Below are positions 35,004-58,737 of a stretch of DNA of 64,000 nt, in pieces (positions within the stretch are counted from its first letter, which is position 1; every line of letters begins with the position of its first letter). Below the pieces are notes generated by a model that saw only the letters and a program-made list of their open reading frames with translations, was not told where the DNA came from and did no database searches. The stretch spans positions 247,669 through 311,668 of the IMG/VR virus record IMGVR_UViG_3300017917_001342. One strand, 5' to 3'. The translations under genes were made by a program, and so were the position numbers. Source of the stretch: a virus.

Positions 35004-35315
35004 TCAAGCAGCTACGGGCCATTTAGATTTAAATTCTTCTAGTTGGAGGTCGGTTGATAGATACAGTATACCACTGTCTACAGCAGAACCTCTGTACTTC
35101 ATACAGTCCCAGGCCCACGGCATCTTTTTACCAGTGTATTCGTAATAGTTTATCCAATGCATAGATTCAATGCCAGAGCCCCATTGTGACCAACACCAGT
35201 CTCTTGCATCAAAAAATTCCAGAATTCCCCAACTGATTTGATGCATCATATAACCGTGTAGTTGATTTCGATTACCAACTGGCTTAACAGTCCAATCCAT
35301 TAATATTTTCCCCAT
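35004..35315 (-). CDS. hypothetical 103-aa Trp-rich protein, probable divergent W-tail family member (RDWCWSQWG ... EEFKSKW)
   Basis: Partial motif. Confidence 0.45.
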   Translation of the reverse strand: MGKILMDWTVKPVGNRNQLHGYMMHQISWGILEFFDARDWCWSQWGSGIESMHWINYYEYTGKKMPWAWDCMKYRGSAVDSGILYLSTDLQLEEFKSKWPVAA

Positions 35316-35617
35316 GTAAATCTAAACAGCATAGCATCTTCTTCTGTGAGAAACCATACATGGCTTTCAACCCAAGCGTAGTTTGAGCCATAGGCATCAT
35401 AGCACCATTGCATGATAGCAGGTGCATCTTTTGCTGCGGCTTTGTCAAGTTTGATTCCGTAATATCCTGCGTCTTTAAATGCAGCAGACGACACTATGCG
35501 TTTAGGATCAAGCTTGGTAAACACTAGACGATATCGATCGCGCGAAGGTACGGCATTGCGACCAACATCACGATGCTTTGAAAACCGAGCAGGTGTTCTA
35601 AGATTCTTATTGATCAT
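35300..35617 (-). CDS. W-tail family member (QWCYDAYGSNY ... EEDAMLFRFTWGKY)
   Basis: Both motifs present. Confidence 0.6.
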   Translation of the reverse strand: MINKNLRTPARFSKHRDVGRNAVPSRDRYRLVFTKLDPKRIVSSAAFKDAGYYGIKLDKAAAKDAPAIMQWCYDAYGSNYAWVESHVWFLTEEDAMLFRFTWGKY

Positions 35618-35626
35618 GTAGAGTCC

Positions 35627-35658
35627 TGTAGATGCTATGCTACACTATAGCATCTACA
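35627..35658 (-). promoter_or_regulatory. 12-bp perfect stem-loop (TGTAGATGCTAT / ATAGCATCTACA, 8-nt loop) 10 nt upstream of the start codon of 35300..35617
   Basis: Perfect inverted repeat abutting the AGGACT Shine-Dalgarno, with no U-tract. Likely an RNA processing or translational control element. Confidence 0.4.
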
Positions 35659-35681
35659 TAAACACAGTCAATACAGTATTA

Positions 35682-36518
35682 TCAGACTTCTAACACTAGT
35701 TTCGGATCAAACGCACCCTGTGGACGTTCTTTTGGATAACCTCTGGGATTGCAAACTACTCTGGTATTGCCAATCATGTAATCGTGACTGTCGTGTACAT
35801 GTCCATGTATCCACAGCTTGAGATGATCATGACTGACCATTAACCAATCTAAGTTGCTGACAAATGCACCATTCATATGCAGTTGATGTGCATACTTTGG
35901 ATGAATACTACGAAAGCTCGGTGCATGATGACCTACAACAACAGTGTTGCGCTTGTCTAGTTCAAGTTGTGTTTTTAGCCATTCAACAGTTTTACGATGT
36001 GTATCAGCAGTTACACTCGGTGGTAGTTTATAATACAAATCACCTACATTGTAGGTAATTGATTTATAATCATTCATCATATCCTTAACAACCATTTCAG
36101 TCATAGGATCATAGTTGTTGAGGCTGCTCCAAACTGTTGCACCAAGAAACACGGTATCGTTGATAACCATCTTGTCTTGTTCTAGAAGATGGATGTTACC
36201 GTGCCGAGCAGCTTCTGTACGAAGTATGTCAGCAGTGCGATCCCAACGTCCGCTGTAGTGTTCATGGTTGCCCATCACATAGAGCACAGTGTCAAACTCT
36301 TGACTTACCTGATGAAAAAAGCTTCGATATCTGATAGCATCGTCTGCATACCAGCCCTTTTGAATATAAGTGTAATCAATACCTGCGCTGGGATTTCTAT
36401 GCATGTGTTCTGCAACACAGATGTCGCCTGCAAGTACCAGTACATCTGCACCTGCATTTTCTACTCGTATGTCTTCTGCAAATTCCAAATGCAGGTCACT
36501 GATCAACTGTATTTTCAT
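35682..36518 (-). CDS. calcineurin-like metallophosphoesterase
   Basis: Motifs DLHLE, GDxxD-like (LAGDIC), GNHE, HHAP and GHVH are visible. Confidence 0.75.
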   Translation of the reverse strand: MKIQLISDLHLEFAEDIRVENAGADVLVLAGDICVAEHMHRNPSAGIDYTYIQKGWYADDAIRYRSFFHQVSQEFDTVLYVMGNHEHYSGRWDRTADILRTEAARHGNIHLLEQDKMVINDTVFLGATVWSSLNNYDPMTEMVVKDMMNDYKSITYNVGDLYYKLPPSVTADTHRKTVEWLKTQLELDKRNTVVVGHHAPSFRSIHPKYAHQLHMNGAFVSNLDWLMVSHDHLKLWIHGHVHDSHDYMIGNTRVVCNPRGYPKERPQGAFDPKLVLEV

Positions 36519-36573
36519 TTTTAACTCACTGTGTTAAGACATTAACTTAGCATCATACTGTGTTGATGTAAAG

Positions 36574-37026
36574 TTATCTAGCAGACTTTTTAGATTCCTC
36601 AGAATCGTGTACACGTTTGCGCAGATCGCTGCTGCTGAATCTATGATCTCGCTTGTTGAAATACAGTTGTATTCCGCGACGTCTGCAAATATCTTTGCCA
36701 GTGAAATCTTTGTCTTTGTATTCCACACCTAATATACGAACGTCTATGCGATACATTTCCAATATATCTTCAAGATCTTTTTCTGTAGCATAGGGTATGA
36801 TCTCGTCAACATACTTTACGCCTTTTAACTGTGTGTATCGTTCAACTATGGTTTGTACAGGTGTGTTTTTGTCTTTGCGATCAGCACTGGGATCCGTTTG
36901 CAATGCACAGATAAGATAGTCACACTGTTCTTTAGCTTCTCTTAGCATTTGAACATGTCCGGCATGCAATAGATCAAACGCAGATGCAGTAAATCCAATC
37001 TTTACAGTTTTTGTTATATCGTTCAT
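36574..37026 (-). CDS. cytidylyltransferase-like nucleotidyltransferase (HxGH motif FDLLHAGH)
   Basis: (T/H)xGH signature of the cytidylyltransferase superfamily (TagD / RfaE domain II-like). Confidence 0.65.
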   Translation of the reverse strand: MNDITKTVKIGFTASAFDLLHAGHVQMLREAKEQCDYLICALQTDPSADRKDKNTPVQTIVERYTQLKGVKYVDEIIPYATEKDLEDILEMYRIDVRILGVEYKDKDFTGKDICRRRGIQLYFNKRDHRFSSSDLRKRVHDSEESKKSAR

Positions 37027-37062
37027 TTTTTATCTTTGTTTATAATTGGTTGCACTTAGTAA

Positions 37063-37095
37063 AATGCTGCTGCACATATCGTGTACAGCAGCATT
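37063..37095 (-). terminator. hairpin/terminator immediately 3' of dnaK (10-bp stem AATGCTGCTG / CAGCAGCATT, then TTTTAC on the minus strand)
   Basis: Strong stem 6 nt after the dnaK stop, with a short U-run. Confidence 0.45.
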
Positions 37096-37100
37096 GATTT

Positions 37101-38954
37101 TTACACTGGATCAGCTTTTACATCGATTGGGCCATCATCGGGCGGCGATGATTGCGACTTGTAAATTATTTCACCCATTTTCATTAGGCTGTCACCTAGT
37201 GATTGCAATGCGGACTGCATTTCTTCAACAGTGTCTTTAGACAATGCTTCGCGTGTAGTAACAAGCTTTTCTTCTATTTCACTTTTCAGTTCTGCAGGAA
37301 GTTTGTCTTCATGTTCCTTGAGTTGCTTTTCAGCCTGATGGATCTGTGCTTCGCCTTGGTTACGAGTTTCAATTACAGCACGCTTCTTTTTGTCAGCTTC
37401 GGCATTTTCCTCAGCTTCTTTAACCATGCGATTAATATCGTCCTCGCTAAGGCCGCCGCTGCTTTGAATTGTAACTTTTTGTTCTTTACCAGTTGCTACA
37501 TCTTTTGCGCTTACATTTACGATACCGTTTGCGTCAATGTCAAATGTAACTTCGATCTGCGGAACGCCTCTAGGTGCTGGTGGGATGCCTTCAAGATTAA
37601 ATGTAGCTAGAAGTTTGTTATCACGAGCAAGTTCGCGTTCACCTTGGCAAACCACAATCTGTACACCCGGCTGATTGTCTTGTGCAGTACTAAAGACCTG
37701 ACTCTTCTTAGTAGGAATAGTAGTGTTGCGTTCAATCAGTTTGGTAAACACGCCACCGAGTGTTTCAATGCCCAGGCTAAGAGGTGTAACGTCTAGCAGT
37801 AGAACGTCTTTAACGTCGCCTTGTAGAACGCCACCTTGAATAGCAGCACCCATAGCAACTACTTCATCTGGGTTAACACCCTGACTTGGGTCACGCTTGA
37901 ACAGTTCTTTGACTGTTTGCTGTACCTTAGGCATACGTGTTTGACCACCGACAAGAATTACTTCTGTAATATCTTCTGGCTTTAGCTTAGCATCAGCAAG
38001 TGCTTTACGGCAAGGTTCTTTAGTGCGTTCAACTAGTTTTTCAACTAGACTTTCTAGTTTAGCACGAGTGAGTTTTACAGTAAGGTGCTTAGGACCTTCT
38101 GCCCCTGCGGTAATATATGGCAAGTTGATTTCAGTCTGCGAACTGCTACTAAGTTCAATTTTGGCTTTTTCAGCAGCTTCTTTGAGACGCTGTAGAGCCA
38201 TGCCATCTTTGCGAAGGTCAACACCCTGTTCTTTTTTGAATTCGTCTGCAAGATAATCAACGATCTGCAAGTCGAAATCTTCACCGCCTAGCTGTGTATC
38301 GCCGTTGGTACTGAGAACTTCAAATACACCGTCGCCTAGTTCTAGAATACTGATATCAAATGTACCACCACCGAGGTCATAGACTGCAATCTTGCCACTG
38401 CCCTTTTTGTCAAGACCGTATGCTAGTGCAGCAGCAGTCGGTTCGTTGATAATACGTAGTACTTCTAGTCCGGCAATTTTACCTGCGTCTTTAGTAGCCT
38501 GACGCTGTGCATCGTTAAAGTATGCAGGTACAGTAATAACAGCCTGTGTTACTGCGGTACCGAGATAGCGTTCAGCAGTTTCTTTCATCTTGACAAGAAT
38601 CTTTGCAGATACTTCTGCAGGACTCATTGCTTTGCCGTCAACTGAAACATATGCGTCGCCATTTGGTGCAGCTACAATTTCGTAAGGCAATAGTTTGCTG
38701 TCTTTTTGAACAGATGAATCTGTAAAACTACGACCAATTAGTCGCTTTACAGCATGTAGTGTATTTTTTGGGTTTGTAACGCTTTGACGTTTTGCAGCAG
38801 CACCGACTAGCTGTTCACCGTCTTTTGCAAATGCAACAATACTAGGTGTGGTGCGAGCACCTTCTGAATTTTCAATTACTTTGGCAGTTCCGCCATCCAT
38901 GATACTTACACAACTGTTTGTTGTACCAAGGTCAATACCAATTACTTTGCTCAT
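37101..38954 (-). CDS. dnaK: Hsp70 chaperone DnaK (617 aa)
   Basis: N-terminus [24 protein letters not shown], and a full-length substrate-binding and lid region. GAGGAG Shine-Dalgarno. Confidence 0.95.
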
Positions 38955-39034
38955 TTTATCTCCTCATAAAGCAAGATATGCAACATCTGCCTAAGGCCAG
39001 ACACTGCATGTCTAATATATATATTTTTTCTTAA

Positions 39035-39565
39035 TTAGTCAAGAGTTTGCTCAAGATATTGTGCCAGTTGAAATATATTAAGCTTATCTTCATTTACTTC
39101 TACCCAACCGACAACACTTATGCCTGCTTCTTTAACTGTATCTCTGCTACCACTTACTAGATGATGCCACCAGTGCAAAGGCTTATTGTGTTTCAACAAT
39201 TTATATGCGCAGGTATCTGGCAATAGTCCGGGGGTGTCTATCACGTCTAGCGTAACTTTCATACAGTTACTTACACGCTGTTGACGATTGATATAGTCTG
39301 TGCATTTTGCAGTTTTAACATCAAGCAGTTTACAGGCGATTTTACAACTTTTGACTTCATAGCCTTTCCAAGCTTTTACTAAACAGCAGCGCCCGCACCC
39401 ATCGCAGAGTTCGTCCCACTGCTGCGTTGTCATTGATTCAAGTGGAATAGTTTCCCACCATTTATCAACTGTAGCTGCTAAGGTCGACTGGTCGCATTCT
39501 AACGATCGGTGTTGGTTCTGCTGGTGGTTCGCCTCTGTTGATGCCGTGTACATGTTCCATACCAT
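39035..39565 (-). CDS. ycgN: YcgN/UPF0260-family Fe-S-like small protein (CDGCGRCC motif)
   Basis: WDELCDGCGRCCL and downstream Cys residues match YcgN. The first ~90 nt overlap the PPIase gene out of frame, so the start is uncertain. Confidence 0.6.
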   Translation of the reverse strand: MVWNMYTASTEANHQQNQHRSLECDQSTLAATVDKWWETIPLESMTTQQWDELCDGCGRCCLVKAWKGYEVKSCKIACKLLDVKTAKCTDYINRQQRVSNCMKVTLDVIDTPGLLPDTCAYKLLKHNKPLHWWHHLVSGSRDTVKEAGISVVGWVEVNEDKLNIFQLAQYLEQTLD

Positions 39566-39914
39566 ATATGACTTTGCCCCACACAGTATATTGTCTATCT
39601 AAGAAACGTGCATCACCAAAACAGATAAAAAATTGATCGCTAGCACTGTTTGGATCAGGAGTTCTTGCCATACTGCAAATACCTTCTGTGTGTGGTACAT
39701 CATTAAATTCTGCTACAAGTTGCGGCAATGTTTTTTGTGTCCAACCGCCCTGTGCCATAAAGCCTTCTATAACACGATGAAACACTGTACCATCATAAAG
39801 TCCTTGTTCAGCTTGTGACAAAATCTGTGCAACGTGGTTTGGTGCTTTATCTGGATAGCATTCTATCAAAACTACACCGGCTGGCAAATGCATTTTTAAA
39901 ACTGGATTACTCAA
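39465..39914 (-). CDS. cyclophilin-type peptidyl-prolyl cis-trans isomerase (TTG start)
   Basis: FHRVIEGFMAQGG and WGKVIYGME signatures of cyclophilin. Confidence 0.8.
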   Translation of the reverse strand: MSNPVLKMHLPAGVVLIECYPDKAPNHVAQILSQAEQGLYDGTVFHRVIEGFMAQGGWTQKTLPQLVAEFNDVPHTEGICSMARTPDPNSASDQFFICFGDARFLDRQYTVWGKVIYGMEHVHGINRGEPPAEPTPIVRMRPVDLSSYS

Positions 39915-39974
39915 CGTAATAGATCCTTATAATATAATAATAAGATTATAACTCAAAAGTTTAACATTGCAAAA

Positions 39975-47475: not shown

Positions 47476-47507
47476 AATAAAAGCCCCGCTTAGCGGGGCT
47501 TTTTTAT
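47473..47507. terminator. bidirectional intrinsic terminator (AAAATAAAA-GCCCCGC-TTA-GCGGGGC-TTTTTTAT)
   Basis: GC stem flanked by an A-tract and a T-tract. Sits between convergent genes. Confidence 0.7.
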
Positions 47508-48154
47508 GACAACAACATGCTTTTTTGATGCCCTACTCTTATAGTAGGATCAACATATATAGTTTCACCTATGTCTGCTGCACTCCAACAGAATCCCACA
47601 TCTTCTGCCGTAAACTCTGAAAACACACCGTCTTCTACCCACCGTGGCCTAAACCATGGGTATTCCATACGTTCCATTACGCCTTTGGCAACTGCAACAA
47701 ATCCAAAGCCAACATAGTTTGCAGTGAACAGATTGGTTCTAGAATCGAGCTCACTGCGCTGCATAAAATCAAACTTGCCGTTTTTCAGTAGATTATTGTA
47801 ATCAAGACGTTCGACTATGGGAAACTCATTGACATTTTGTGTTGGGTAACAGCCACTAACAATGGGTTTGTTGTGCGATAACAGTTTTAGTACGTCTTCA
47901 CCTTTCCATACAATATCACTGTCAATCCATACTTGGTAATCGTAGTCAATATTGCCACCAAATGGTTTTTGTTTTCTACCGTCTACATTGTTACCACCTA
48001 GTACGCGATTTCTTGCATAGTACACAACTGGATCATAAGCAACACTAAATGCCCATTCTATATTGTTTGCACCGCAAGTGGTAATAGTGTCTGTCCATGA
48101 CCGCATCCAAAGATCACTAAATTCTCTGCCGGGTACACAAAATATTACTCTCAT
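47504..48154 (-). CDS. hypothetical 216-aa protein
   Basis: ORF. Confidence 0.5.
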   Translation of the reverse strand: MRVIFCVPGREFSDLWMRSWTDTITTCGANNIEWAFSVAYDPVVYYARNRVLGGNNVDGRKQKPFGGNIDYDYQVWIDSDIVWKGEDVLKLLSHNKPIVSGCYPTQNVNEFPIVERLDYNNLLKNGKFDFMQRSELDSRTNLFTANYVGFGFVAVAKGVMERMEYPWFRPRWVEDGVFSEFTAEDVGFCWSAADIGETIYVDPTIRVGHQKSMLLS

Positions 48155-48200: not shown

Positions 48201-49493
48201 TTACCAAATAGTTTCGCCGTTTCTTTTTACAACAGCAGTGTAGGTTCCGTCAGTATTCCTAGACACATATAAGCGTTGTTTGATAAAACCGATTACATCG
48301 CCAACACTGTATTGATTTGATCTGTCTTGTACGTCTTTTAGACTTTGTTTGTACACTTCTTCTATATTGTGTATGTCTAAAACACTGCCATCTTCTTCAT
48401 TGGCTTCTTTAGCATATTCTCTAACTTCGTCCGGAGTTAGATCTATAGCATCTTCTATTGTGTCAAATATACCACGTGCTTCGTCGTTGTAAGATAGATA
48501 ACTGGGTGCATCATCTGTTATTTCATCGTCGTCGTTGACATAGCCTTCGCTACGCAACCACTCGTAATAGTAGTCGTCATTGGTTTCCCAATCGCTTAGC
48601 ATTTCGTATACATAATCCATCAACAGTTCTTTTATTTTTTTAGTCAATGGTACTAGTATTTCGTCGGGAGCAAATTCCAACATGCGATCGAAGTATTCTG
48701 GGTGTCGTTCTTTAAAAAAGTCAAACAGTTCAGGAAAACGTGTTCTAAGCAGCCAGGTCAATCCCACTGCATCGTCGTCTTCATTCATAAACTGTTCACT
48801 TGGAAAGTGTAGTTGATACTTTTCACCATCATGTTCAGGGTTCTTAGGTATCAATATGTACAGCGGTCCTTGACGGTTATAACGTTCAAAGTAATTGGTA
48901 CCATGAGTAGCAGCAGTACACCAGCGAGTACCTCGGCCATATCTACATGCTGCTGGTTCATCTAGTGGATGTACAATTGCAACTTCTGAGCTATCGTAGA
49001 TTTTTTCTGCTCGACCCTTGTCGGCATCATCTTCAACGTCTTCGTATTCGTCCATTCTATCTAGAAATTCGTCAAATGTCTTGTAGCGATTAATGTCATT
49101 GAATGGTGCAGCTATACGCTTTTTGCGATTGAGTTTGTCAAACTTGGCAAGATATGTTGCAACAGTACTGACCATATCTTCTATCTGCGTGATTCTTGTA
49201 TTTTGTGGTGATGCAAATAGTCTAGCCATCCACTGAGTATACTTTTTATTTGGCGACGGATCAGCAGCTTCAAACTGTTCCATAGCTCGTTCTGCAAAAT
49301 CATTGAGGCTGTCAGGATCTGATGCTGCATCGTGATATAATGGGCTATTTTTAAGTTTATCGGCTAATTGGTTCAAAGGTGTCGAATATAAACCAACTGC
49401 ATCACGTAGTGCAGCTAATCCTAAATTTGGACCTATCGCAGCAATAGCACGAGCGCGATCATATTCTAGTAATAGTAAAGTTTGTATTTTCAT
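48201..49493 (-). CDS. hypothetical 430-aa protein (motif YGRGTRWCTAATHGTNYF), translationally coupled to the upstream ART-like gene
   Basis: ATGA overlap at 49490-49493. Confidence 0.55.
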   Translation of the reverse strand: MKIQTLLLLEYDRARAIAAIGPNLGLAALRDAVGLYSTPLNQLADKLKNSPLYHDAASDPDSLNDFAERAMEQFEAADPSPNKKYTQWMARLFASPQNTRITQIEDMVSTVATYLAKFDKLNRKKRIAAPFNDINRYKTFDEFLDRMDEYEDVEDDADKGRAEKIYDSSEVAIVHPLDEPAACRYGRGTRWCTAATHGTNYFERYNRQGPLYILIPKNPEHDGEKYQLHFPSEQFMNEDDDAVGLTWLLRTRFPELFDFFKERHPEYFDRMLEFAPDEILVPLTKKIKELLMDYVYEMLSDWETNDDYYYEWLRSEGYVNDDDEITDDAPSYLSYNDEARGIFDTIEDAIDLTPDEVREYAKEANEEDGSVLDIHNIEEVYKQSLKDVQDRSNQYSVGDVIGFIKQRLYVSRNTDGTYTAVVKRNGETIW

Positions 49494-50650
49494 CGTTCGA
49501 GCTCATCTGCTACTATTAGGTTGCCTTTTCTGACAAATTTTCTCAAACCATCTGCTTGTATAAGTTCGTGAGTGCGTTCGTCAGTTGGATAGACTTTACA
49601 TACTTCTAATTCATTTTCCCAGGTGTACTCTGGATTGGGATCGCCTGCTTGCCAATCGTCAAATCCCTGTTTACCATCGGCTAACGCAGTCTCAGGAGTC
49701 TGGCCGGTACCCCAAGCATAATCTTCACTGGGATTGCCAAAGAAATACCACTCGGCTTTGGTTTGTGGTATTGGGCCAGCTTTTTCTTTTGGACGATTCA
49801 TAGTAGTTTGATCGTAATAGACTTTACCGTTTGATCTATTTTCGATTCGTATAATACGAGTTTTACCTTTGAATCCTATGTTGCGTGTAACTCTAACTGT
49901 GTCAGATTCAATAGGTTTAACTGTGGCAAGTACATTGTACATTGCGGTTTCGAACGCAGGGGTATGTCTAATGTCATTTAATATGCGAAAACTTACATAA
50001 TTTCTAAATTTACTAGACGATTGCTTCTTATTGACAATATGTCGTAAAAATACAGTTGCGAGTACTCTTATTTCAAGTAGCGCATTGCGATTCAATTTGA
50101 TTTTTGTAGGTCTGGCATTGTATTGGCGCAGGTTTATTTTAGTTGGATTTAAAAATGCCTGTTCAACATGCGTTAATGCGTTTTGAAAATTTTGTTTGTT
50201 TGAATAGTATGCCGAAGCGTCTTCTACAGATTCAATTGCTGCGGGTGTTGAATCTAATATAGACTCAGTTAATATTGCCATAATATCATCTTCGTCTATA
50301 GTACCTGAACTTATCACATACTGTAGAGTTATTAAAACAGGATCACCGCCATGTGCAGTAGATGCGTTGTCTGCACCTTCTTCTGCTTTGTCTAAGTCAG
50401 AAGTTAGATACACACCGCCTTTAAATGTATCATATCCACCAGTATCTACATTAGTCTCTCTACTGTATGTGGATTTTGGTGGATTAGCTAATAATCCGTG
50501 CTTTAGTATACTAGGTACTAGTGCGCTGCTAGTACCATGATACATGGTTTGAACACGTTGTATTTTTCGTTCGGTGAGGATGTCGTTGATTTGCATCCAA
50601 TATTTATAAGCAAGATAGCTTGAATAACAGTTGTTCTTCTTGACTGGCAA
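49490..50650 (-). CDS. protein with N-terminal H-G-T ADP-ribosyltransferase / Tpt1(KptA)-like motif (MYHGTSSALVPSILKHGL ... GGVYLTSD)
   Basis: YHGT(S/A)..L..I...GL then V-Y/H-L-S/T resembles the NAD-binding core of KptA/Tpt1 and H-Y-E-class ARTs. Confidence 0.45.
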   Translation of the reverse strand: MPVKKNNCYSSYLAYKYWMQINDILTERKIQRVQTMYHGTSSALVPSILKHGLLANPPKSTYSRETNVDTGGYDTFKGGVYLTSDLDKAEEGADNASTAHGGDPVLITLQYVISSGTIDEDDIMAILTESILDSTPAAIESVEDASAYYSNKQNFQNALTHVEQAFLNPTKINLRQYNARPTKIKLNRNALLEIRVLATVFLRHIVNKKQSSSKFRNYVSFRILNDIRHTPAFETAMYNVLATVKPIESDTVRVTRNIGFKGKTRIIRIENRSNGKVYYDQTTMNRPKEKAGPIPQTKAEWYFFGNPSEDYAWGTGQTPETALADGKQGFDDWQAGDPNPEYTWENELEVCKVYPTDERTHELIQADGLRKFVRKGNLIVADELER

Positions 50651-50855
50651 ACCCTATGTATGCATGATTTGCATCAAACCACCACGCCCAGGGTCCTTGG
50701 CAGTTTACATCACACCATTCTATTAATTCATGTTCTATAGTTGGTATTCTGTTGTCGAAGAGCGATGTATGTTTGTAAACATACGGTACATCATTAGGCG
50801 GGAGATTATCCCGCCTAAATTTGCTTTCAACTGACTTACGCAGGGAAGAAGTCAT
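50604..50855 (-). CDS. W-tail family member, degenerate tail (EWCDVNCQGPW ... EEQLLFKLSCL)
   Basis: Motif 1 intact. The terminal W is replaced by C. Confidence 0.55.
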   Translation of the reverse strand: MTSSLRKSVESKFRRDNLPPNDVPYVYKHTSLFDNRIPTIEHELIEWCDVNCQGPWAWWFDANHAYIGFASQEEQLLFKLSCL

Positions 50856-51441
50856 AGATCATTACTTCTTCACGAGGCAATGATGTTTTAGGATATGGTG
50901 TACCTTGTGGAATACCAATTGCAATCAGCATACCAACAACGTGATTTTCTGGCATGTTAATTGCTGCGCCAACTGCATCAGCATCAAACCCAATCATTGG
51001 GCTACATGCAAATCCAAGATCTGTTGCTGCTAGCATGATAGCAGATGCTGCCATACCTACGCTACGCATAGCTTCGTCACGCTGTACTTCTGGACGATCC
51101 TTATAAAATCCCACGGTCATATCTGACATGTATTTTGCAGTTTCTTCGCCGTTTGCAACCCAATAACGAGCCGGGTCGTTTTTCCATGCATTGAGATCTG
51201 CACACACTGCGATCAACACACTGTTAACACCGACCTGTGCTTGATCCCAAGCACTGCGCTTGATCTTTTCTTTAATGCCACGATCACGAATTGCAACAAA
51301 ACGCCAATTTTGAATATTGAAACTGGTCGGCATGCTGCGAGCAGCGTCAATAATGTAATTTAGATCTTCATCTGACATCTGATGACTGGGGTCAAAATCG
51401 CGCTGTGTTCTACGAGCCGTTACTACGTCTTTAAATTCCAT
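50836..51441 (-). CDS. nitroreductase-family (NAD(P)H-flavin oxidoreductase) protein
   Basis: N-terminal RRTQRDF and a fold-typical pattern (Q-N-W-R-F, glycine-rich end). Confidence 0.7.
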   Translation of the reverse strand: MEFKDVVTARRTQRDFDPSHQMSDEDLNYIIDAARSMPTSFNIQNWRFVAIRDRGIKEKIKRSAWDQAQVGVNSVLIAVCADLNAWKNDPARYWVANGEETAKYMSDMTVGFYKDRPEVQRDEAMRSVGMAASAIMLAATDLGFACSPMIGFDADAVGAAINMPENHVVGMLIAIGIPQGTPYPKTSLPREEVMIYDFFPA

Positions 51442-52087: not shown

Positions 52088-52163
52088 AACCCTTTGTGTG
52101 TTTGCCTATGCGTTCACACTATAGATATTTGTTAACCATGTCAACTGGATATTTTGAAAAATC

Positions 52164-52550: not shown

Positions 52551-52567
52551 TGTGTTTCCTTGTTGTT

Positions 52568-52644
52568 TGGTAGGGGATGCAGGACTCGAACCAGCAACCT
52601 ACGGATTATGAGTCCGGCGCTCTAACCAATTGAGCTAATCCCCC
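52568..52644 (-). tRNA. tRNA with CAU anticodon (Met/Ile2-type; overall closest to elongator tRNA-Ile2(LAU) architecture), CCA encoded
   Basis: Cloverleaf folded by hand: 7-bp acceptor (G1-U72 wobble), D-arm AGCTCAATTGGTTAGAGC, anticodon loop CUCAUAA, T-arm GCTGG-TTCGAGT-CCTGC (one U-U mismatch), discriminator A plus CCA. Confidence 0.8.
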
Positions 52645-52654
52645 ATTGTAGCTA

Positions 52655-53275: not shown

Positions 53276-53299
53276 GTTGCGATCAACAACTTCAACCGT

Positions 53300-54022
53300 T
53301 TATTTGGCTCTCCATGGGAAGTTACCACCATAGCGTTCGTACTGTATGCGGTTACCATTGTTGAAAAACTCTTGGTTAACACTGTTGGGATTGCCATCTA
53401 GTCTATAATTTAGTGTGTACTGTCCAGTGGTTCCCCATTGCGGAAAGTGTTGAGATATTGCAGCAAGAAAACGTCTGTCACCGCCCCAGCCCCAGTGCCA
53501 TGCAGAACCTATCTGTGTAATAACTTCACGCTTAATGCAGAAACTGCTGGTGTCAACTAGGTGATGATTTGCACCAAGATATATAGGCCAACGACCTAGA
53601 CTTTCACAGTCGTCTAGACAAAGGTAGTTACCATCCTTGTCTACAATTTTACGTAGGCTGTGCCCCCATTGCCAGCCATTGGCTTCTATGGCAGCAATCT
53701 GTGTAGCTACGTGATCAATATCAAACCAATTGTCTTGATCCAAATACAGTATGTAATCTGTATTCACCAAGTGGCTAACTGCTGCATAGATGCGATGACC
53801 ATAAAAACCATTTGCACCAGTGTTGTCGGGCAATTGCAATATTTTTACATAGTTGCGGTACTGTTCAATGACTGTGTTTACTGCGTCAGTAAACTGCGGC
53901 CCATCTATTACTACCCAGACTTCTGTATTTGGATGTGTTTGCAACAAAGCAGAATCAACTGCTTTGGCTAAAACTTCGTTACCAGTGGCGGCTATGACTA
54001 TGGTTGCTGTACTCATACTCAA
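53300..54022 (-). CDS. family-2-like glycosyltransferase (GT-A fold, DxD = LDQDN)
   Basis: N-terminal Rossmann IVIAATGNE, DGPQ, DxD. Confidence 0.6.
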   Translation of the reverse strand: MSMSTATIVIAATGNEVLAKAVDSALLQTHPNTEVWVVIDGPQFTDAVNTVIEQYRNYVKILQLPDNTGANGFYGHRIYAAVSHLVNTDYILYLDQDNWFDIDHVATQIAAIEANGWQWGHSLRKIVDKDGNYLCLDDCESLGRWPIYLGANHHLVDTSSFCIKREVITQIGSAWHWGWGGDRRFLAAISQHFPQWGTTGQYTLNYRLDGNPNSVNQEFFNNGNRIQYERYGGNFPWRAK

Positions 54023-54038
54023 GTGTGCGATCTAACAG

Positions 54039-54590
54039 TTAACCTTGCAACCATAGAGGGAACAATGCATCTTTGTTGTCAGTGCTGATAAAGTATCCGT
54101 TAAAGTCGCTGGTGTTAGGTACGATACGTACATTGGTATCTTTCAGATACTTTTTTATTTCGCGTAACGGTATACCTTGTGCATAGCACACATGTAGTCT
54201 CGGTGGAAGCTGTCTAACCCATTCTATTGCAGAGTCTATCATTGCATCTGTTCCAATAACGCAAACTTCATTTTCAACATAGGTGCAATCAATTAAATCA
54301 TCTGGTAGGTTCATAACCTGATGCACATAGCTGTTATGTAGGAAATCTTCAAACTTGCGTTTTTTTGAAATGTGTATAGCACCCTGTGCTGTGCAATAAT
54401 CTACAATTTGTGAGTGTTCCCAGTCACTTATAGCAGCAACACTCATACCTTTTATACCTGGTATATTCCACCATTTTTTAAAACTGTCATCGTGTGTTAA
54501 TTTCAATTCCCAGGCGGCTAATGAGAACGGAACTTTGTCCATGCTATTAACCATTCTTCTGAACATTCTGTAACGGTGATGTGTGGTCAC
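54039..54590 (-). CDS. hypothetical 183-aa protein
   Basis: ORF. Confidence 0.5.
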   Translation of the reverse strand: MTTHHRYRMFRRMVNSMDKVPFSLAAWELKLTHDDSFKKWWNIPGIKGMSVAAISDWEHSQIVDYCTAQGAIHISKKRKFEDFLHNSYVHQVMNLPDDLIDCTYVENEVCVIGTDAMIDSAIEWVRQLPPRLHVCYAQGIPLREIKKYLKDTNVRIVPNTSDFNGYFISTDNKDALFPLWLQG

Positions 54591-54643
54591 GGTAGTTGCT
54601 GTACCTTATTGTATTATTTAAGATATTTACTATCATTTGGCAT

Positions 54644-54898
54644 TTATCCCCAGACAAGTCGGTATTCTGTCCACAACTCGTCATCTAGCCATACAAATAT
54701 AGTAGTCGCAATCCACGGTTCGCTATTTCTTTTATAACGAACATGTTCAGTTCCTATGGTAATACCTCGATCTTGTAGCCAAAGATTCTGTTCAACAAGG
54801 TTAACATTCTGTAAAAGATCATCGTAATGACGGCGAGTATGATAACTGCGCCATTCCATATATTGTGGTTCTTCTAAGTGAAGCAATACTCGTTTCAT
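54644..54898 (-). CDS. W-tail family member (LWLQDRGI ... DELWTEYRLVWG)
   Basis: Motif match (EYRLTW subtype, like 17009..17257). Confidence 0.6.
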   Translation of the reverse strand: MKRVLLHLEEPQYMEWRSYHTRRHYDDLLQNVNLVEQNLWLQDRGITIGTEHVRYKRNSEPWIATTIFVWLDDELWTEYRLVWG

Positions 54899-54908
54899 AC
54901 GTAATTAC

Positions 54909-55130
54909 TTACGCACGAAGTCGTTCTTCCAATGTAAAATGTTCTACATCAAGAACATCCAACAACCAGTTAGTCATTACATCATCTATATAGTGTTGTG
55001 ATTTACCTAAAATATCACGACGTGCAACTGCAATATCGTTTTTGTAGAATGTAATCGAGTATCCGCCCTCGATATCACTGCAAACCGAATATTTGTTATC
55101 ATCTGGTATAAGGGAATAGATCTGATGCAT
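54909..55130 (-). CDS. hypothetical 73-aa protein
   Basis: ORF. Confidence 0.45.
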   Translation of the reverse strand: MHQIYSLIPDDNKYSVCSDIEGGYSITFYKNDIAVARRDILGKSQHYIDDVMTNWLLDVLDVEHFTLEERLRA

Positions 55131-55579
55131 TAGCCGGCTTTTTTAAGTTTCTCTTGAAACATTTTAAGTCTTTTTGCAGCAATGTCATTGTTTAACAGCA
55201 TATCAACTGTCCACGACAACGGTCTTGGCATTTCACTGAGATCTGCCCATTTATATTCAACATGTTCCCAACTAAGCTTGGGTTCAAATTCCTTATTGAT
55301 ACCTATTGCAAAATTAGTGTGTATGAACTTGGGTTCTTCTGTAGTGTTTGTAGACAGTTTAACAATAGGTGCTTCTGATAGACTGCGACCTATTTCTTCA
55401 GTTAGTTCTCTGTACAGTCCTTCTAGGACTGTTTCTCCACGTTCTACATGACCACCGGGTAAACACCAATGCAGTGGATCATTTACTAGATCACTGCGCA
55501 AAATAAAGAGGACACGTTCTGTCTCTCTGGCCCATATCAGTGCAGATGCTGCCTGTTTGATTAGTTCATCATATCTCAT
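55130..55579 (-). CDS. NUDIX hydrolase
   Basis: Nudix box GGHVERGETVLEGLYRELTEEIG. Confidence 0.8.
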   Translation of the reverse strand: MRYDELIKQAASALIWARETERVLFILRSDLVNDPLHWCLPGGHVERGETVLEGLYRELTEEIGRSLSEAPIVKLSTNTTEEPKFIHTNFAIGINKEFEPKLSWEHVEYKWADLSEMPRPLSWTVDMLLNNDIAAKRLKMFQEKLKKAG

Positions 55580-55587
55580 ATACTAAT

Positions 55588-56142
55588 TTATCCAAAATTC
55601 TCAATTGCCAACACTGTGTCATGATGTTGTAATATTTCGTAATGATTAGCTTGAACTCTAACAAATTCGCCGCAACTCCAACCAGTTTGTATTTTAACTG
55701 GTAATACACCATCGTTGTCTTCGTAGATAAATGGGTTAAAACCGGTGCCAGCAACAATATGCCGGACCGGTTTAGTGTAGGTTGCACGTTTCATATCTTT
55801 TATAACATGACTGTCTTTTGCGATCTGTCCTATTAGCCTACTGCGACTGAAATACAACTGTATGAGATTCAGTTCAAGTCCTGCTAATGGCGATGCTAGT
55901 GTGATAATGCGATTGACCAGTGGATGATCGTGTAAATGCAGTGCAACTATACCACCTAGACTGTGTCCTATAACTGTGCAGGGTTCGGTGATACTATCGT
56001 TTGCACGCTGTATTATATCTCGCATTCCGTCAGCAGCGTGATCATAGGATAACATAGTCCAGTTAGCAGTTATCTGTGAACGCAAATAGTTAAAACTAAC
56101 CGGACTGCTCCATGCGCCGTGTATTGCAAATATATTAGTCAA
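55588..56142 (-). CDS. alpha/beta-hydrolase (lipase/esterase-like, GHSLGG nucleophile elbow)
   Basis: G-H-S-L-G-G pentapeptide and a downstream His/Asp context. Confidence 0.65.
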   Translation of the reverse strand: MTNIFAIHGAWSSPVSFNYLRSQITANWTMLSYDHAADGMRDIIQRANDSITEPCTVIGHSLGGIVALHLHDHPLVNRIITLASPLAGLELNLIQLYFSRSRLIGQIAKDSHVIKDMKRATYTKPVRHIVAGTGFNPFIYEDNDGVLPVKIQTGWSCGEFVRVQANHYEILQHHDTVLAIENFG

Positions 56143-56359
56143 TGCGTAAACTCTCTAATAAGAGTATTATTTACGCTGCTATTGCATGGTTAACCCCAAG
56201 TTAGTTTAAACAGAACAGCGTCATCGAGATTTTTGAAATACCAATAATGGCCATAGCATTTGTACTTGCCAATGTTTTCGTTTAACCATGGCACAGGTAT
56301 ACCTTTCCATGTAGGTACAAAAACCATATGCCATGATTTATCAAGATGACGTTTATTCA

Positions 56360-56545
56360 TCAATCCAGCGATGGACCAGTGTCGTGATCAAGCTCGTAGA
56401 ACCGAGCATCATCAAGAGTTTTCAGCCAACGACCGGTTTCAAACGGATGAGTGATAACATAGATGCTGAGTACAAAAATGTACAAGCCAAGCACAGAAAG
56501 AACAACGTCGCGAATAGTTTTAGTAACGTACATGTGATGCCCCAA
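56360..56545 (-). CDS. small membrane protein (61 aa)
   Basis: Two hydrophobic segments. Confidence 0.4.
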   Translation of the reverse strand: MGHHMYVTKTIRDVVLSVLGLYIFVLSIYVITHPFETGRWLKTLDDARFYELDHDTGPSLD

Positions 56546-56605
56546 ATATCAAAGTAGAACAGATTGTCTACCAAAACAATTTAACACAACTTATAGCGTT
56601 GTCAA

Positions 56606-56902
56606 TCAATAGTCGCCATCTTGTAGTACAATTGCACTAGGTGTAGTTGTATCAATCAGTTTCATAGTGCCTCTGTATGCAAGTCCACGTTTTTGCAATT
56701 CTTCTGTTAATAATTCAATGGCTTGCGTTTCCGATTCTGCAACTACTACCGCGCTTACACCAACTGGCCATAATCCTTCGAAATCAGTATTGTAGTAGAC
56801 TTTTAGTTGTTTTGAAATTGTTGCATTGGCAGTGTCTAACTGCATTTGCAATGTTTCTAATTTAGCCTGTGCGTATGTTGCTTCGTATAGCCAGTCTGAC
56901 AT
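56606..56902 (-). CDS. hypothetical 98-aa protein
   Basis: ORF. Confidence 0.5.
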   Translation of the reverse strand: MSDWLYEATYAQAKLETLQMQLDTANATISKQLKVYYNTDFEGLWPVGVSAVVVAESETQAIELLTEELQKRGLAYRGTMKLIDTTTPSAIVLQDGDY

Positions 56903-56996
56903 GTTGACACTCCATGGATAATTTTCATTATATGGTAATATATCTCAAAGAATAAAATTCTTGAGAATAAATACTGTTACAGCGAGGTGCATCACT

Positions 56997-57638
56997 ATGG
57001 AAATGGATTATAGAGATATAATGAAAGCAGTGTTGAGAAGCCAACATTGCCAGCGCAATTTTGATTTGTCTAAGACAATACCAGACGAAGATTTGGATCT
57101 GATGATAAATGCAGCAACAAATTGCCCCAGTAAACAAAACATTTCATTTTATGATTTGTATGTAATTAGAGACCAAGATCTCATTGCTAAGATACACAAG
57201 CTGTCTACTGGTGTTACTGCACACAATACCATAACTGGCGAGCGCGACACACCAACTACAAACAGTCAAACACTGGCAAACGTTTTGTTCTTGTATATAC
57301 ATAAAGATCTCGACGAAGTTACTCCCAGTGCATTTGAAAAATGGAGTCGTGCAGACGAAGCAGAACTCAAAGTATTCGAACGCGATGTTAACACTGCAAT
57401 AGGTATATCTGCCGGATATGTTAACTTTGCTGCAAGCCTGCTCGGATATGCAACTGGTTGTTGCCAGTGTTTCCAAAAAGAAGAAATTAGAAAACTTCTA
57501 GGTCTTAAGAAGGGTCCAGACTTGCTTATGGGTATTGGATATTCAGACGAAACAAGAAATCGTAGAGTACATGCTACACAGCCTGAGTTGATGTTCCCAA
57601 CTAGAGCTAAAGAAGATATTGCTGTACATTATATGTAA
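56997..57638 (+). CDS. nitroreductase-family protein (start at MEMDYRD after GAGGTG; track start 56961)
   Basis: R-x-x-Q-R-N-F, APSKQN and GY...ETRNRR blocks of the nitroreductase fold. Shine-Dalgarno before the second ATG. Confidence 0.65.
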   Translation: MEMDYRDIMKAVLRSQHCQRNFDLSKTIPDEDLDLMINAATNCPSKQNISFYDLYVIRDQDLIAKIHKLSTGVTAHNTITGERDTPTTNSQTLANVLFLYIHKDLDEVTPSAFEKWSRADEAELKVFERDVNTAIGISAGYVNFAASLLGYATGCCQCFQKEEIRKLLGLKKGPDLLMGIGYSDETRNRRVHATQPELMFPTRAKEDIAVHYM

Positions 57639-57668
57639 AAAAAGCCGCGCTTAGCGCGGCTTTTTTAT
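57636..57668. terminator. bidirectional intrinsic terminator (AAAAAA-GCCGCGC-TTA-GCGCGGC-TTTTTTATTT)
   Basis: GC stem with A and T flanks, between convergent genes. Confidence 0.7.
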
Positions 57669-57676
57669 TTCAACTG

Positions 57677-58369
57677 TTACTTGCGTTGTCCGAGCAGCTT
57701 GAGCAAGTACAACATTAGGTTTACAAAGTCTAGGTATAGACTCAATGCACCCATGATACCAGCTTTTGCACGTTCTTCGCCACTGGTAAGGTAATAGACT
57801 TCTTTGACTTTCTGTGTGTCATATGCAGTCAACCCCACAAAGATCAACACACCGATTACACTGATCGCAAAGTCAAATGCAGCACTTTGCATAAAAAGGT
57901 TGACAATGCTTGCTACGATCAATCCGATTAGACCCATTAGCAGGAACCCACCAAGACTGGTTAGATCCTTTTTAGTAGTATAACCGTAGATACTCATAGA
58001 AAGAAACATCACAGCAGTAATACCAAATACTTGGAATACAGATCCCAGTTGGTACATAAGGAACACTGTGCTAAGGCTAACGCCCATAACAGCAGCGTAT
58101 GCATAGAACATTGTTTGTAGTGCAGATGCACTAAACTTTTCAAATCCAAAGCTCATCACCAGCACCATTGCCAACGGTGCAAAGACAAACAGGAATGCCT
58201 GCGGTCCGCCTAGGAACAGTGCGGTAAGTTCCGGCACAGTTGCAACTAGATACGCAACAACACCGCTGACTACAAGACCAATGCCCATGTTGTTGTAAAC
58301 ACTGAGCATATGTTCACGCAACCCGTTATCAATTACAGCAGTTGCAGTATGACCATTTAGTTTTTCCAT
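57677..58369 (-). CDS. yccA: BAX-inhibitor-1 / YccA-family membrane protein (putative FtsH modulator)
   Basis: Seven predicted TM helices with the family-typical N-terminal cytoplasmic segment. A candidate sigma70 promoter (TTGTAA, 17-nt spacer, TATATT) lies upstream at about 58400-58435. Confidence 0.7.
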   Translation of the reverse strand: MEKLNGHTATAVIDNGLREHMLSVYNNMGIGLVVSGVVAYLVATVPELTALFLGGPQAFLFVFAPLAMVLVMSFGFEKFSASALQTMFYAYAAVMGVSLSTVFLMYQLGSVFQVFGITAVMFLSMSIYGYTTKKDLTSLGGFLLMGLIGLIVASIVNLFMQSAAFDFAISVIGVLIFVGLTAYDTQKVKEVYYLTSGEERAKAGIMGALSLYLDFVNLMLYLLKLLGQRK

Positions 58370-58440
58370 TAACAGTACCCTTTCTTAAGGTTATATGAAA
58401 AACAGTTATAATATAGTACAGTGTTTGATTATTTACAAGA

Positions 58441-58737
58441 TCATCTATTATTTTTTAGATGTTGTTCGTACCATTCTTCTAGTCTAGGTACAATACTATG
58501 ACTATCCATAGTTAATTTAAACAAAAATGCGTCGTCTGCAGATTGAAAACAGATTGTAACAGGCTGATTTGCTACAACACGGCCTTCTTGGTTTTTTACA
58601 AAACTCAGTTTGAATTTCGCAGTACCGTCGCGGTTAGTACCGTATTCGGCTTTAATCCACTCTATTAAACGACCACCATGGCCAGTCCATATTTCAGTTG
58701 GTATACTAACATGGTAAGGTGTGGGGAGATACGTCAC
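58441..58737 (-). CDS. W-tail family-like protein (IEWIKAEYGTN ... DDAFLFKLTMD + 17-aa extension)
   Basis: Motif 1 and an FKLT core are present, with a C-terminal extension in place of the W end. Confidence 0.5.
   Translation of the reverse strand: MTYLPTPYHVSIPTEIWTGHGGRLIEWIKAEYGTNRDGTAKFKLSFVKNQEGRVVANQPVTICFQSADDAFLFKLTMDSHSIVPRLEEWYEQHLKNNR

Follow-up and report, generated by a model that had tools for sequence, protein, structure and literature searches.

T4-type phage genomes contain hyperplastic regions (nrdC.x, tk.x, 55.x), where short, tightly packed and often overlapping ORFs are placed between genes of auxiliary enzymes. Early promoters of sigma-70 type precede these ORFs, which are not the same from one relative to another, mostly lack an assigned function and belong to many unrelated families. 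Shuffling of gene modules in T4-type genomes is reportedly mediated by PeSL promoter/stem-loop cassettes, which Arbiol, Comeau and Krisch are said to have described in 2010. In jumbo phages, lineage-specific expansions of small domains are known, for instance in Bacillus phage G, which encodes a zinc ribbon in approximately 35 copies (Iyer et al. 2021, PMC7824862).

Here we examine a 64-kb window (the whole stretch of DNA analysed), part of a 518-kb contig of an uncultured phage, which carries at least 19 genes of a single homologous family, denoted W-tail. Like the T4 hyperplastic ORFs, these genes are short, packed, often overlapping, located among auxiliary enzymes and not present in every relative, with sigma-70-type sites recognised by consensus; unlike them, they all belong to one family. 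With the jumbo-phage expansions they share the high number of paralogs per very large genome, the prevalence of adjacent runs over a few scattered copies, and a function inferred as binding or regulation. The survey of Iyer et al. (PMC7824862) makes no mention of the W-tail family, which differs from the zinc ribbon expansion in its predicted beta-alpha-beta-beta-alpha fold with an all-Trp/Phe core and no metal ligands. Since W-tail subtypes are conserved across distant phages, the family does not represent a single-lineage burst, unlike those expansions.

The W-tail family within and outside the window

W-tail proteins mostly comprise 55-130 amino acids, with a variable N-terminal part of 10-80 residues followed at the C-terminus by a conserved core of approximately 50 residues (consensus WCxxNxG ... 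(R)W ... FxF-xx-E(E)DA-xx-FKLRW). Motif 1, W-C/L-x-x-N, contains the invariant Trp of helix alpha1; in motif 2, the FxF strand leads into a C-terminal E/D-D-A-x-x-F-x-L-x-W. No sequence in alignments A1 and A3 deviates at the first Trp, and conservation is at least 90% at F, D, F and the last W. Fourteen genes form an array (Table 1), in which eight junctions have the form ...NNATGA, producing 4-nt overlaps of stop and start.

Table 1. W-tail genes and promoter-like sites in the window (all on the minus strand)
Feature	Coordinates	Strand	Description	Basis
Parent array	14335-19198	minus	14 W-tail genes, 3 non-member ORFs interspersed	
Array genes (a)	14335-14712, 14703-14978, 14975-15388, 15375-15629, 15620-16030	minus		
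Array genes (b)	16294-16614, 17009-17257, 17248-17496, 17726-17896, 17884-18270	minus		
Array genes (c)	18261-18497, 18499-18759, 18756-18998, 18974-19198	minus		
W-tail singleton	35300..35617	minus	105 aa, tail FRFTWGKY	array-only HMM E=1.1e-5
W-tail singleton	50604..50855	minus	83 aa, tail FKLSCL	array-only HMM E=1.3e-4
W-tail singleton, divergent subfamily	54644..54898	minus	84 aa, tail YRLVWG	paralogy with 17009-17257
W-tail singleton	56190..56360	minus	56 aa from ATG (TTG start at 56363), tail FKLTWG	array-only HMM E=3.3e-5
W-tail singleton	58441..58737	minus	98 aa, core end FKLTMD plus 22-aa extension	array-only HMM E=4.9e-6
Doubtful member	35004..35300	minus	Trp-rich, 98 aa from ATG, ending FKSKWPVAA	motif resemblance and synteny
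Sigma-70-like site	35644..35671	minus	TTGACT-16-TATAGT with TG, spacer upstream of 35300-35617	consensus match only
Sigma-70-like site	56578..56605	minus	TTGACA-16-TAAATT with TG, spacer before 56360-56545 and 56190-56360	consensus match only
Sigma-70-like site	59922..59949	minus	TTGACA-16-TATTAT with TG (11/12 matches), upstream of CCA gene	consensus match only

The window was searched (1020 ORFs of at least 30 amino acids) with a profile HMM derived from the core region of the array genes alone, 14 in number; the first non-member match appeared at E=0.1. Five dispersed members, all on the minus strand, were confirmed, and the best BLASTP match of each within the window is an array gene, as expected from the original prediction that array and dispersed ORFs are paralogous. 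The closest paralogs are 17884-18270 for 35300-35617 (31% identity over 81 residues, E=4.5e-8), 18499-18759 for 50604-50855 (E=5.6e-5), 14703-14978 for 56190 (E=2.6e-4) and 18974-19198 for 58441-58737 (E=0.002). The member at 54644-54898 was missed by the array-only HMM (E=3.8 among the 1020 window ORFs), and its membership was established indirectly, via array gene 17009-17257: the two proteins share 39% identity over 44 residues (BLASTP E=1e-8; E=2.6e-7 when all dispersed ORFs were compared within the window), and the profile of this pair can be aligned in register to the rest of the family, hhalign giving the same value (P=2e-4) whether the other window members or 50 external ones serve as reference. 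Identity between paralogs does not exceed 39% at the amino acid level. Evidently, the five dispersed ORFs are genuine functional members of a big, undescribed family of small phage proteins.

Four of these ORFs (35300, 50604, 54644 and 58441) had been predicted as dispersed copies; 56190-56363 had been overlooked and represents the sixth dispersed ORF and fifth confirmed member. Significant alignment, on which the prediction was staked, was thus found for five ORFs, the unlisted one included, and was missing for 35004-35315, proposed as a divergent copy. This ORF probably starts at the ATG at 35300 (TAATG overlap), as called in relative L001; the predicted form used an ATG further upstream. 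It aligned with the family at E=0.27 over 19 columns (hhalign), appeared in no match list of the family HMM, had no paralog at E<0.05 in the window (BLASTP), and a search of 5.8 billion proteins yielded a single homolog, a 94%-identical copy. A true member occupies the corresponding slot after the 35300 ortholog in relative L005; what links the 35004 ORF itself to the family is position and likeness of motifs.

Outside the window, the family comprises 1088 representatives at 50% identity (E<=1e-3), about 1,000 clusters; among the best 150 of the 1088, nearly all have 43-180 residues with the match ending at the C-terminus. No Pfam-A, PHROGs v4 or NCBIfam model matched window members above threshold, 50 external members had no Pfam, PHROGs or NCBIfam family in common, and no PHROG matched any member of either set. 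A weak match to DUF6275 was obtained for 14703 only (E=0.0048, below cutoff). Judged by these sequence searches, the family is large, undescribed and absent from curated family sets.

The cultured Sinorhizobium phage Phosso (PV764938.1) has five members after its CCA enzyme (XYS97656-XYS97660) and four between topoisomerase subunits (XYS97670-XYS97673), all annotated as hypothetical, with family HMM E-values as low as 3e-10. The relationship of Phosso to the window phage is distant (CCA enzyme 36.5% identical); the two have in common the family, the array habit and the position directly after a CCA-type nucleotidyltransferase. The Phosso tails end in WL, YS, IL, NT, WDD, FMVG and VP. Seven of eight IMG/VR loci, gathered by one tail pattern, contain 3-7 members, the eighth (L020) one. 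Further arrays were found in L025 (at least 10 members), a Sphingobium MAG contig (4) and L005 (7 by motif, four with HMM support). The usual arrangement of the family is a tightly packed, translationally coupled array. Subtypes are kept across phages of 41-57% GC, namely the Gp23N fusion, PNPPLPEPQRW, RFNSGDP and the subtype of 58441, a relative of which lies inside the array in L025.

Genomic context and selection of the dispersed genes

Each dispersed copy was originally placed at the 3' side of an enzyme gene, which proved right for two of four. The 35300-35617 gene sits downstream of a metallophosphoesterase (35682-36518) with a 64-nt spacer between, and the GTG start of 58441-58737 overlaps the stop of the CCA enzyme 58734-59903 (GTGA). 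The gene at 50604-50855, assigned to an ART-like neighbour, actually follows a nitroreductase (50836-51441), with a 20-nt overlap of its stop, and ends 7 nt upstream of the ATG of a weakly PARP-like gene. Similarly, 54644-54898 does not follow a glycosyltransferase: a 73-aa ORF and a NUDIX gene are upstream, and the family-2 glycosyltransferase (53300-54022) is two genes downstream. The 56190-56360 gene is coupled to a 61-aa membrane-like ORF (56360-56545).

Three singletons are located just downstream of spacer sites with sigma-70 consensus, one of them through the CCA gene coupled to 58441-58737, so that early transcription by the host RNA polymerase is probable for them; the total of sigma-70-like sites is no higher than in shuffled sequence. 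The site at 35644-35671 overlaps an 11-bp perfect hairpin, whose stem is kept and loop varies among relatives L001-L003, which also carry identical or near-identical copies of 35300-35617. In L005, a diverged 35300 ortholog (P0064) is found close to a Metallophos gene.

Comparison with relatives, proposed originally as a presence/absence test, showed four of the five singletons at the same positions at 71-82% DNA identity: 58441 and 56190 in L004 (82%), 50604 and 54644 in L006-L008 (71-77%). Synonymous divergence of these orthologs ranges from 0.67 to saturation. Selection was estimated for the same four genes, the L005 ortholog of 35300 being too diverged. The 58441 ortholog, P0055 in L004, is 79% identical (dN/dS 0.20; pN/pS 0.27 by proportions), the 56190 ortholog in L004 (6372-6557) 54% (dN/dS 0.13) and the 54644 ortholog 73% (pN 0.16 versus pS 0.89, pN/pS 0.18, dS saturated); for 50604, with its ortholog at the same position in L006 and L007, dN/dS is 0.23. 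All four genes are under purifying selection, with pN/pS of 0.13-0.27. The 50604 site is the variable one: in L009-L011, whose nitroreductase is 63-73% identical, other genes are found there, so some gain or loss by recombination has occurred.

The unusual tails were described correctly, with the last Trp replaced by C in 50604 and by M in 58441, where FKLTMD is followed by an extension. Their interpretation as decay is not supported by the dN/dS values of these two genes, nor by their orthologs: P0055 has the same tail and extension, and the 50604 ortholog in L006 ends in FRLSV, so that loss of the Trp is common to both. Replacements of the last Trp (by Y, F, I, V or N) are frequent in Phosso and IMG/VR arrays as well, so that it is a variable position of the family and its loss not a sign of erosion. 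As far as orthologous sequences can tell, both tails are inherited, lineage-specific variants.

Origin of the dispersed copies

The original proposal was of a short W-tail cassette, perhaps with a mini-promoter or conserved junction, of which transposition or recombination had recently placed copies at new sites, the odd tails being in decay. Paralogy with the array, the presence of other genes at the 50604 site in more distant relatives, and the promoter-like element and hairpin belonging to 35300 all speak for such movement. So does a 36-nt match of 81% between the 14703 and 56190 tails; however, this was the one non-adjacent similarity found when all 20 copies with 60-nt flanks were compared (blastn, word size 7), and it lies in the coding tail motif. 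Within 30 nt on either side of the 20 copies no position exceeded 0.54 bit of information, and a repeat search of the window revealed none linking the copies. Most copies have no spacer, their starts overlapping the stop of the upstream gene, which leaves no room for a shared mini-promoter that could travel along. The closest known mechanism would be PeSL. The 35300 spacer indeed pairs an early-type promoter-like site with an 11-bp hairpin, but flanks of the other copies in the window contain no repeated promoter or hairpin sequence, so the family was not dispersed on PeSL-type cassettes there. Low identity of paralogs, conserved synteny despite the synonymous divergence, and purifying selection with odd tails common to orthologs are likewise difficult to reconcile with recent copying. 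We consider this reading very improbable and largely refuted; ancient duplication behind the dispersed copies is supported instead.

It is extremely improbable that the dispersed ORFs are chance look-alikes or non-coding. Their motifs are short, and 35004-35315 fails every statistical test. The five other ORFs, however, stand clearly apart from noise in independent profile or pairwise tests, have intact reading frames, conserved orthologs with pN well below pS, and confident structure predictions. For them a chance origin is refuted, 35004-35315 being the only exception.

Predicted fold and possible function

AlphaFold predicts a generic three-stranded, ferredoxin-like domain (beta1-alpha1-beta2-beta3-alpha2). 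The core model of 14703 (pLDDT 86) has the order helix-strand-strand-helix, and the full-length model of 50604 (core pLDDT 85-91) contains E25-28, H38-51, E58-61, E66-69 and H72-82. Sequence comparison with solved structures (PDB) gave no significant match. The combination of four-stranded fold, RNP1/RNP2 and profile match that marks RRM members was not found either.

The W-tail domain could also be a minimal RRM- or ferredoxin-like nucleic-acid binder, its proteins acting on RNA or tRNA, or as regulators or chaperones alongside neighbouring enzymes of RNA metabolism such as the CCA-adding enzyme. We regard this as rather unlikely. Compared with the beta-alpha-beta-beta-alpha-beta superfold of ACT, RRM and HMA domains, the W-tail domain lacks the fourth strand, is 2-18% identical in sequence and has no RNP, metal-binding or ligand-binding motifs.

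The best explanation as a whole, to which we give about an even chance, combines old functional paralogs at fixed sites with an inferred role as early binding proteins of variable surface. The family grew by ancient duplication, the array being its usual arrangement, and the singletons are old paralogs that took up their places among auxiliary enzyme genes before the split from relatives of 71-82% DNA identity. Conserved residues are confined to hydrophobic or aromatic core positions and one acidic helix cap, no catalytic-looking constellation is present among the conserved positions of the family, and the N-terminus and alpha1-beta2 loop are hypervariable in length; the domain thus appears to be a stable scaffold with variable surfaces. 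Its members may be early-expressed, non-enzymatic proteins, each paralog binding a different host or phage macromolecule, in the manner of accessory proteins of host takeover or anti-defence. That subtypes persist in phages of very different kinds favours distinct fixed partners over a fast arms race. Against this reading, such conservation and the pN/pS values are expected more of housekeeping accessory functions than of classic anti-defence genes.

Capsid association is still less probable than nucleic-acid binding. W-tail proteins would then be packaged or assembly-related, with N-terminal peptides as targeting signals, and might be co-injected with the DNA. Array gene 17884-18270 and the external clusters P0092 and P0043 carry an N-terminal stretch of 30-60 residues that matches the conserved N-terminal segment of Gp23, the T4-type major capsid protein (E=2.4e-10, 6.7e-13 and 1.9e-4, respectively), fused to the W-tail domain, and this fusion recurs in phages that differ widely in GC content; the paralog closest to 17884-18270 is 35300-35617. 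Only this single subtype has the capsid-like segment, however, 35300 itself is without it, and the genes lie among auxiliary or early-looking genes and not in a structural module.

A broader proposal, that W-tail is a widespread, unrecognised scaffold for a repertoire of small effectors, with a capsid-displaying subtype, in huge phages (at least those of Alphaproteobacteria), is rather unlikely. If it is true, paralogs would differ in the N-terminal peptide or loop that they offer, each to its own specific target in host or phage, and one conserved subtype would display the N-terminal segment of the major capsid protein, either as a mimic of it or as a capsid-targeting signal.

Membership of the dispersed genes

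The 14-gene array is characterized, in a motif scan and in ORF listings, by a Trp motif W-C/L-x-x-N on the N-terminal side and a C-terminal FxF..E/D-D-A..F.L.W. When an HMM based exclusively on the core regions of the 14 array genes was compared with the 1020 window ORFs of at least 30 aa, four ORFs (58441, 35300, 56190 and 50604) ranked directly after the array genes, noise starting from E=0.1. One of them, 56190-56363, is absent from the original prediction, which listed dispersed copies with both motifs at 35300, 50604, 54644 and 58441 and a probable divergent one at 35004-35315. ORF 54644 shares 39% identity over 44 aa (E=1e-8) with array gene 17009-17257, and a profile of this pair aligns across the whole core in two comparisons (each with P near 2e-4), one against the other window members and one against 50 external members; on these grounds we assign it to a divergent subfamily. 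The four listed copies are thus supported by profile or BLASTP comparison, whereas 35004-35315 fails every test: hhalign against the family gave E=0.27, there is no HMM match and no paralog at E<0.05, and its sole homolog in a collection of 5.8 billion proteins is 94% identical. All that speaks for it is the equivalent slot of a distant related locus (L005), which is occupied by a true W-tail member.

W-tail genes and other features of the window (dispersed W-tail genes: E value with the array-only HMM)
Position	Strand	Feature	Match	dN/dS
643-3564	+	973-aa protein, eight collagen triple-helix repeat stretches	Pfam Collagen, E=8e-65	
14335-19198	-	array of 14 W-tail genes		
17884-18270	-	array gene, ~40-aa N-terminal segment fused to W-tail domain	Pfam Gp23 positions 5-42, E=2.4e-10	
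24087-25157	-	356-aa ORF, N-terminal HNH endonuclease motif (E=1.9e-4) and RNA ligase	Pfam RNA_ligase, E=5e-27	
35004-35315		doubtful ORF		
35300-35617	-	dispersed W-tail gene	E=1.1e-5	
35618-35681	-	64-nt spacer		
47476-47513		terminator-like hairpin		
49490-50650	-	PARP/ART-like gene	Pfam PARP, E=7.6e-4 (below cutoff)	
50604-50855	-	dispersed W-tail gene	E=1.3e-4	0.23
54644-54898	-	dispersed W-tail gene	none	pN 0.16 vs pS 0.89
56190-56363	-	dispersed W-tail gene	E=3.3e-5	0.13
56360-56545	-	61-aa ORF		
57637-57674		terminator-like hairpin		
58441-58737	-	dispersed W-tail gene	E=4.9e-6	0.20

It was further proposed that each copy sits 3´ of a particular enzyme gene. On the transcribed strand this is true of 35300, separated from the preceding metallophosphoesterase by a 64-nt spacer, and of 58441, which overlaps the preceding CCA enzyme by GTGA, but not of the other two. 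ORF 50604 overlaps the preceding nitroreductase by 20 nt and the PARP-like gene comes after it; 54644 is preceded by a 73-aa ORF and a NUDIX gene, the glycosyltransferase lying two genes further downstream. Since two related loci (L006 and L007) keep the 50604 ortholog at the nitroreductase without a PARP-like gene, the association with the latter is incidental.

In these two loci the W-tail ortholog directly precedes the ortholog of 48201-49493, and the PARP/ART-like gene represents an indel among close relatives; its start is likely the ATG near 50596 rather than the TTG at 50650. The 61-aa ORF contains a membrane-like hydrophobic segment, shares a TGATG overlap that couples it with the W-tail gene 56190-56360, and has an ortholog at the same position in L004, a diverged relative. 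Its end, ...RWLKTLDDARFYELDHD, resembles a W-tail tail, not significantly. At eight junctions of the array W-x-stop reads ...NNATGA, the next ATG overlapping the TGA stop by 4 nt. True starts are therefore often later than longest-ORF starts, and later starts at 18756-18977, 17726-17887 and 17009-17251 agree with the gene calls P0040, P0020 and P0016.

Stability of the dispersed sites

Dispersal and degenerate tails had been read as duplication, transposition or recombination, and decay of a short cassette. Alignment of the copies with 30 nt on each side revealed no shared junction or mini-promoter (at most 0.54 bit at any position), and a repeat search found no repeats linking W-tail copies. 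The one DNA similarity among non-adjacent copies, 36 nt at 81%, falls where 14703 and 56190 encode their tails; identity between paralogs is 22-39%. Because most copies start inside the upstream gene or a few bases from it, as at the eight array junctions, there is no space for a shared promoter.

Comparison with related phages for presence or absence at each site showed sites that are stable across L004-L008 and not moving. The order in L004 (82% DNA identity) is CCA enzyme, 58441 ortholog, Bax1-I, nitroreductase, 98-aa ORF, 57-aa ORF and 56190 ortholog. The 54644 ortholog is in place in L006-L008 (71-77% identity) and that of 50604 in L006 and L007, and in the much more distant L005 the 35300 ortholog lies two genes past a metallophosphoesterase, with further members on its flanks. 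Some turnover does occur at the 50604 site, other genes following the nitroreductase in loci L009-L011.

Selection on 58441, 50604, 56190 and 54644 is purifying (see table; adjacent enzymes gave 0.07-0.12 in the same comparison). The FKLTMD tail and extension of 58441 are kept in L004, the 50604 ortholog ends in FRLSV, and elsewhere in the family Y, F, I, V or N frequently takes the place of the last Trp. Duplication stands, while transposition is contradicted by synteny and by the lack of common flanks and repeats, and decay by purifying selection and by tails common to orthologs. Scattered paralogs among enzyme genes are nothing unusual in a very large phage.

Judged by consensus matches, the three best sigma-70-like sites with extended -10 in intergenic DNA are located immediately upstream of 35300, of the gene pair 56360/56190 and of the pair formed by the CCA gene and 58441, suggesting that the singletons with these sites may be transcribed early by host polymerase. 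The T4 late-promoter motif TATAAATA, for which 4.5 occurrences would be expected, was seen once and is uninformative. In the 64-nt spacer the site (TTGACT-16-TATAGT with TG) overlaps a perfect 11-bp hairpin, GTAGATGCTAT/ATAGCATCTAC, which in the near-identical loci L001-L003 shows single-base differences in the loop or the loop-proximal stem end. Behind the metallophosphoesterase of L005 there is likewise a TTGACA-type site.

Family size, arrays and phage Phosso

A full HMMER search with an 18-member core alignment against 1.84 billion cluster representatives gave 1088 proteins at E<=1e-3, which puts the family at about a thousand metagenomic clusters at 50% identity. The top four matches (P0028-P0030 and P0087, 594-1143 aa) were rejected as tandem-repeat proteins summing many weak stretches; the rest of the best 150 of the 1088 are nearly all 43-180 aa long and match at the very C-terminus, some carrying tandem double domains. 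Neither the window members nor 50 diverse members as a family matched Pfam-A, PHROGs or NCBIfam, and DUF6275 was dismissed as a single sub-threshold match not common to 50 other members. No sequence-related solved structure was found, and a BFVD search gave nothing at E<=1e-3. Names in source records, including those reached by a word-indexed protein search with alignment A3 of family members and by cluster look-up, are absent or "hypothetical protein", and no description turned up in a tail-motif text search or in jumbo-phage papers. The W-tail family is undescribed and common.

Arrays, typically of 3-14 genes, are the usual arrangement. Loci were retrieved by means of a degenerate nucleotide pattern encoding EDA..LFKLRW; seven of the eight IMG/VR loci obtained with this single tail pattern hold 3-7 members and L020 holds one, while L025 has at least ten. 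Subtypes (PNPPLPEPQRW loop, RFNSGDP, the 58441 type, fusion to the Gp23 N-terminal segment) recur over phages of 41-57% GC, and the paralogs must therefore be old and individually conserved. The only GTDB genomes matching the pattern are two Alphaproteobacteria: a Sphingobium MAG (L023, contig JBPPMC010000261.1) with four members in a row, and Microvirga tunisiensis (L024, NZ_VOSK01000565.1), where the contig is 2.7 kb at 343x coverage. Both are possibly phage contigs inside genome assemblies.

A near-identity search of 35000-59000 against INPHARED revealed no cultured phage close in DNA. With tblastn, one of three members gave a weak INPHARED match, to Sinorhizobium phage Phosso (E=0.03), the other two none; the Phosso match was borne out by an HMM scan of the locus. 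In this cultured phage (469 kb) five members immediately follow a CCA-type nucleotidyltransferase and four lie between topoisomerase subunits, all annotated hypothetical. W-tail runs are present both at 10308-13346 and at 19407-20452 (L012, PV764938.1), and the local gene order (topoisomerase subunits and CCA enzyme, QueD and ClpX nearby) is common to Phosso and the window phage. At its C-terminus the Phosso CCA enzyme is extended by about 96 aa, whose end (FLAFFKSKDSAMIAKL) is W-tail-like without significance and was not accepted, and no members occur near the CCA gene of Atu_ph07 and CcrColossus. A compact domain of ~50 aa, present in a tractable cultured phage, is worth defining: this would clear many ORFans from the annotation of huge phages and supply concrete genes for host-takeover or anti-defence tests.

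Predicted fold, possible role and gene setting

AlphaFold2 predicts helix-strand-strand-helix for the 51-aa core (pLDDT 86) and, for full-length 50604 with a 67-sequence alignment, a low-confidence N-terminus followed by beta1-alpha1-beta2-beta3-alpha2 (pLDDT 85-91). Conservation falls on aromatic or aliphatic residues of the core and on an acidic helix N-cap, with no polar constellation suggesting catalysis; N-terminus and alpha1-beta2 loop range in length between 0 and some 40 residues, and members are mostly acidic. Because conservation is restricted to the core, loops vary, members are acidic and the genes lie in arrays or among auxiliary genes, we favour binding proteins, in which the domain would be a stable scaffold presenting variable surfaces. 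They would act as early accessory proteins, each with a particular host or phage partner. Binding of RNA or tRNA, to which the FxF-EEDA element, reminiscent of an RRM, and the conserved location behind the CCA enzyme could point, seems unlikely to us, and association with the capsid, indicated by the Gp23-N fusions, somewhat less likely still. Domain fusions as a whole (tandem W-tail duplications, Gp23-N fusions, one sub-threshold DUF7726 match) gave no functional clue.

The capsid-segment fusion is a conserved, specific and testable oddity. Pfam Gp23 is the T4-type major capsid protein, and the fusion recurs in P0092 (L025 2129-2524, E=6.7e-13) and P0043 (L028 199-585, E=1.9e-4), in clusters below 50% identity; in L025 a W-tail array again ends with this gene.

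The window is part of a 518,643-bp JGI metagenome contig. Almost all genes from 14 to 60 kb are on the minus strand, and the region of the original prediction (35004-58737) holds a patchwork of auxiliary genes, most of them Pfam-supported: metallophosphoesterase, nitroreductase, a weakly PARP-like protein, family-2 glycosyltransferase, NUDIX hydrolase, alpha/beta hydrolase, Bax1-I homolog and CCA-type nucleotidyltransferase. Read from translations only, without profile search, are cytidylyltransferase-like, DnaK, cyclophilin, ClpS, Hsp20, ClpX, QueD-like and TilS-like genes; there is one tRNA-Met gene. The two terminator-like hairpins, GC-rich and between convergent genes, are 87% identical over 38 nt (AAAAGCCCCGCTTAGCGGGGCTTTT type). 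The HNH and RNA ligase architecture of the 356-aa ORF has been reported for jumbo phages (PMC7824862). The collagen-repeat protein is followed by a 1735-aa ORF without Pfam match, and both are probably fibre or decoration proteins.
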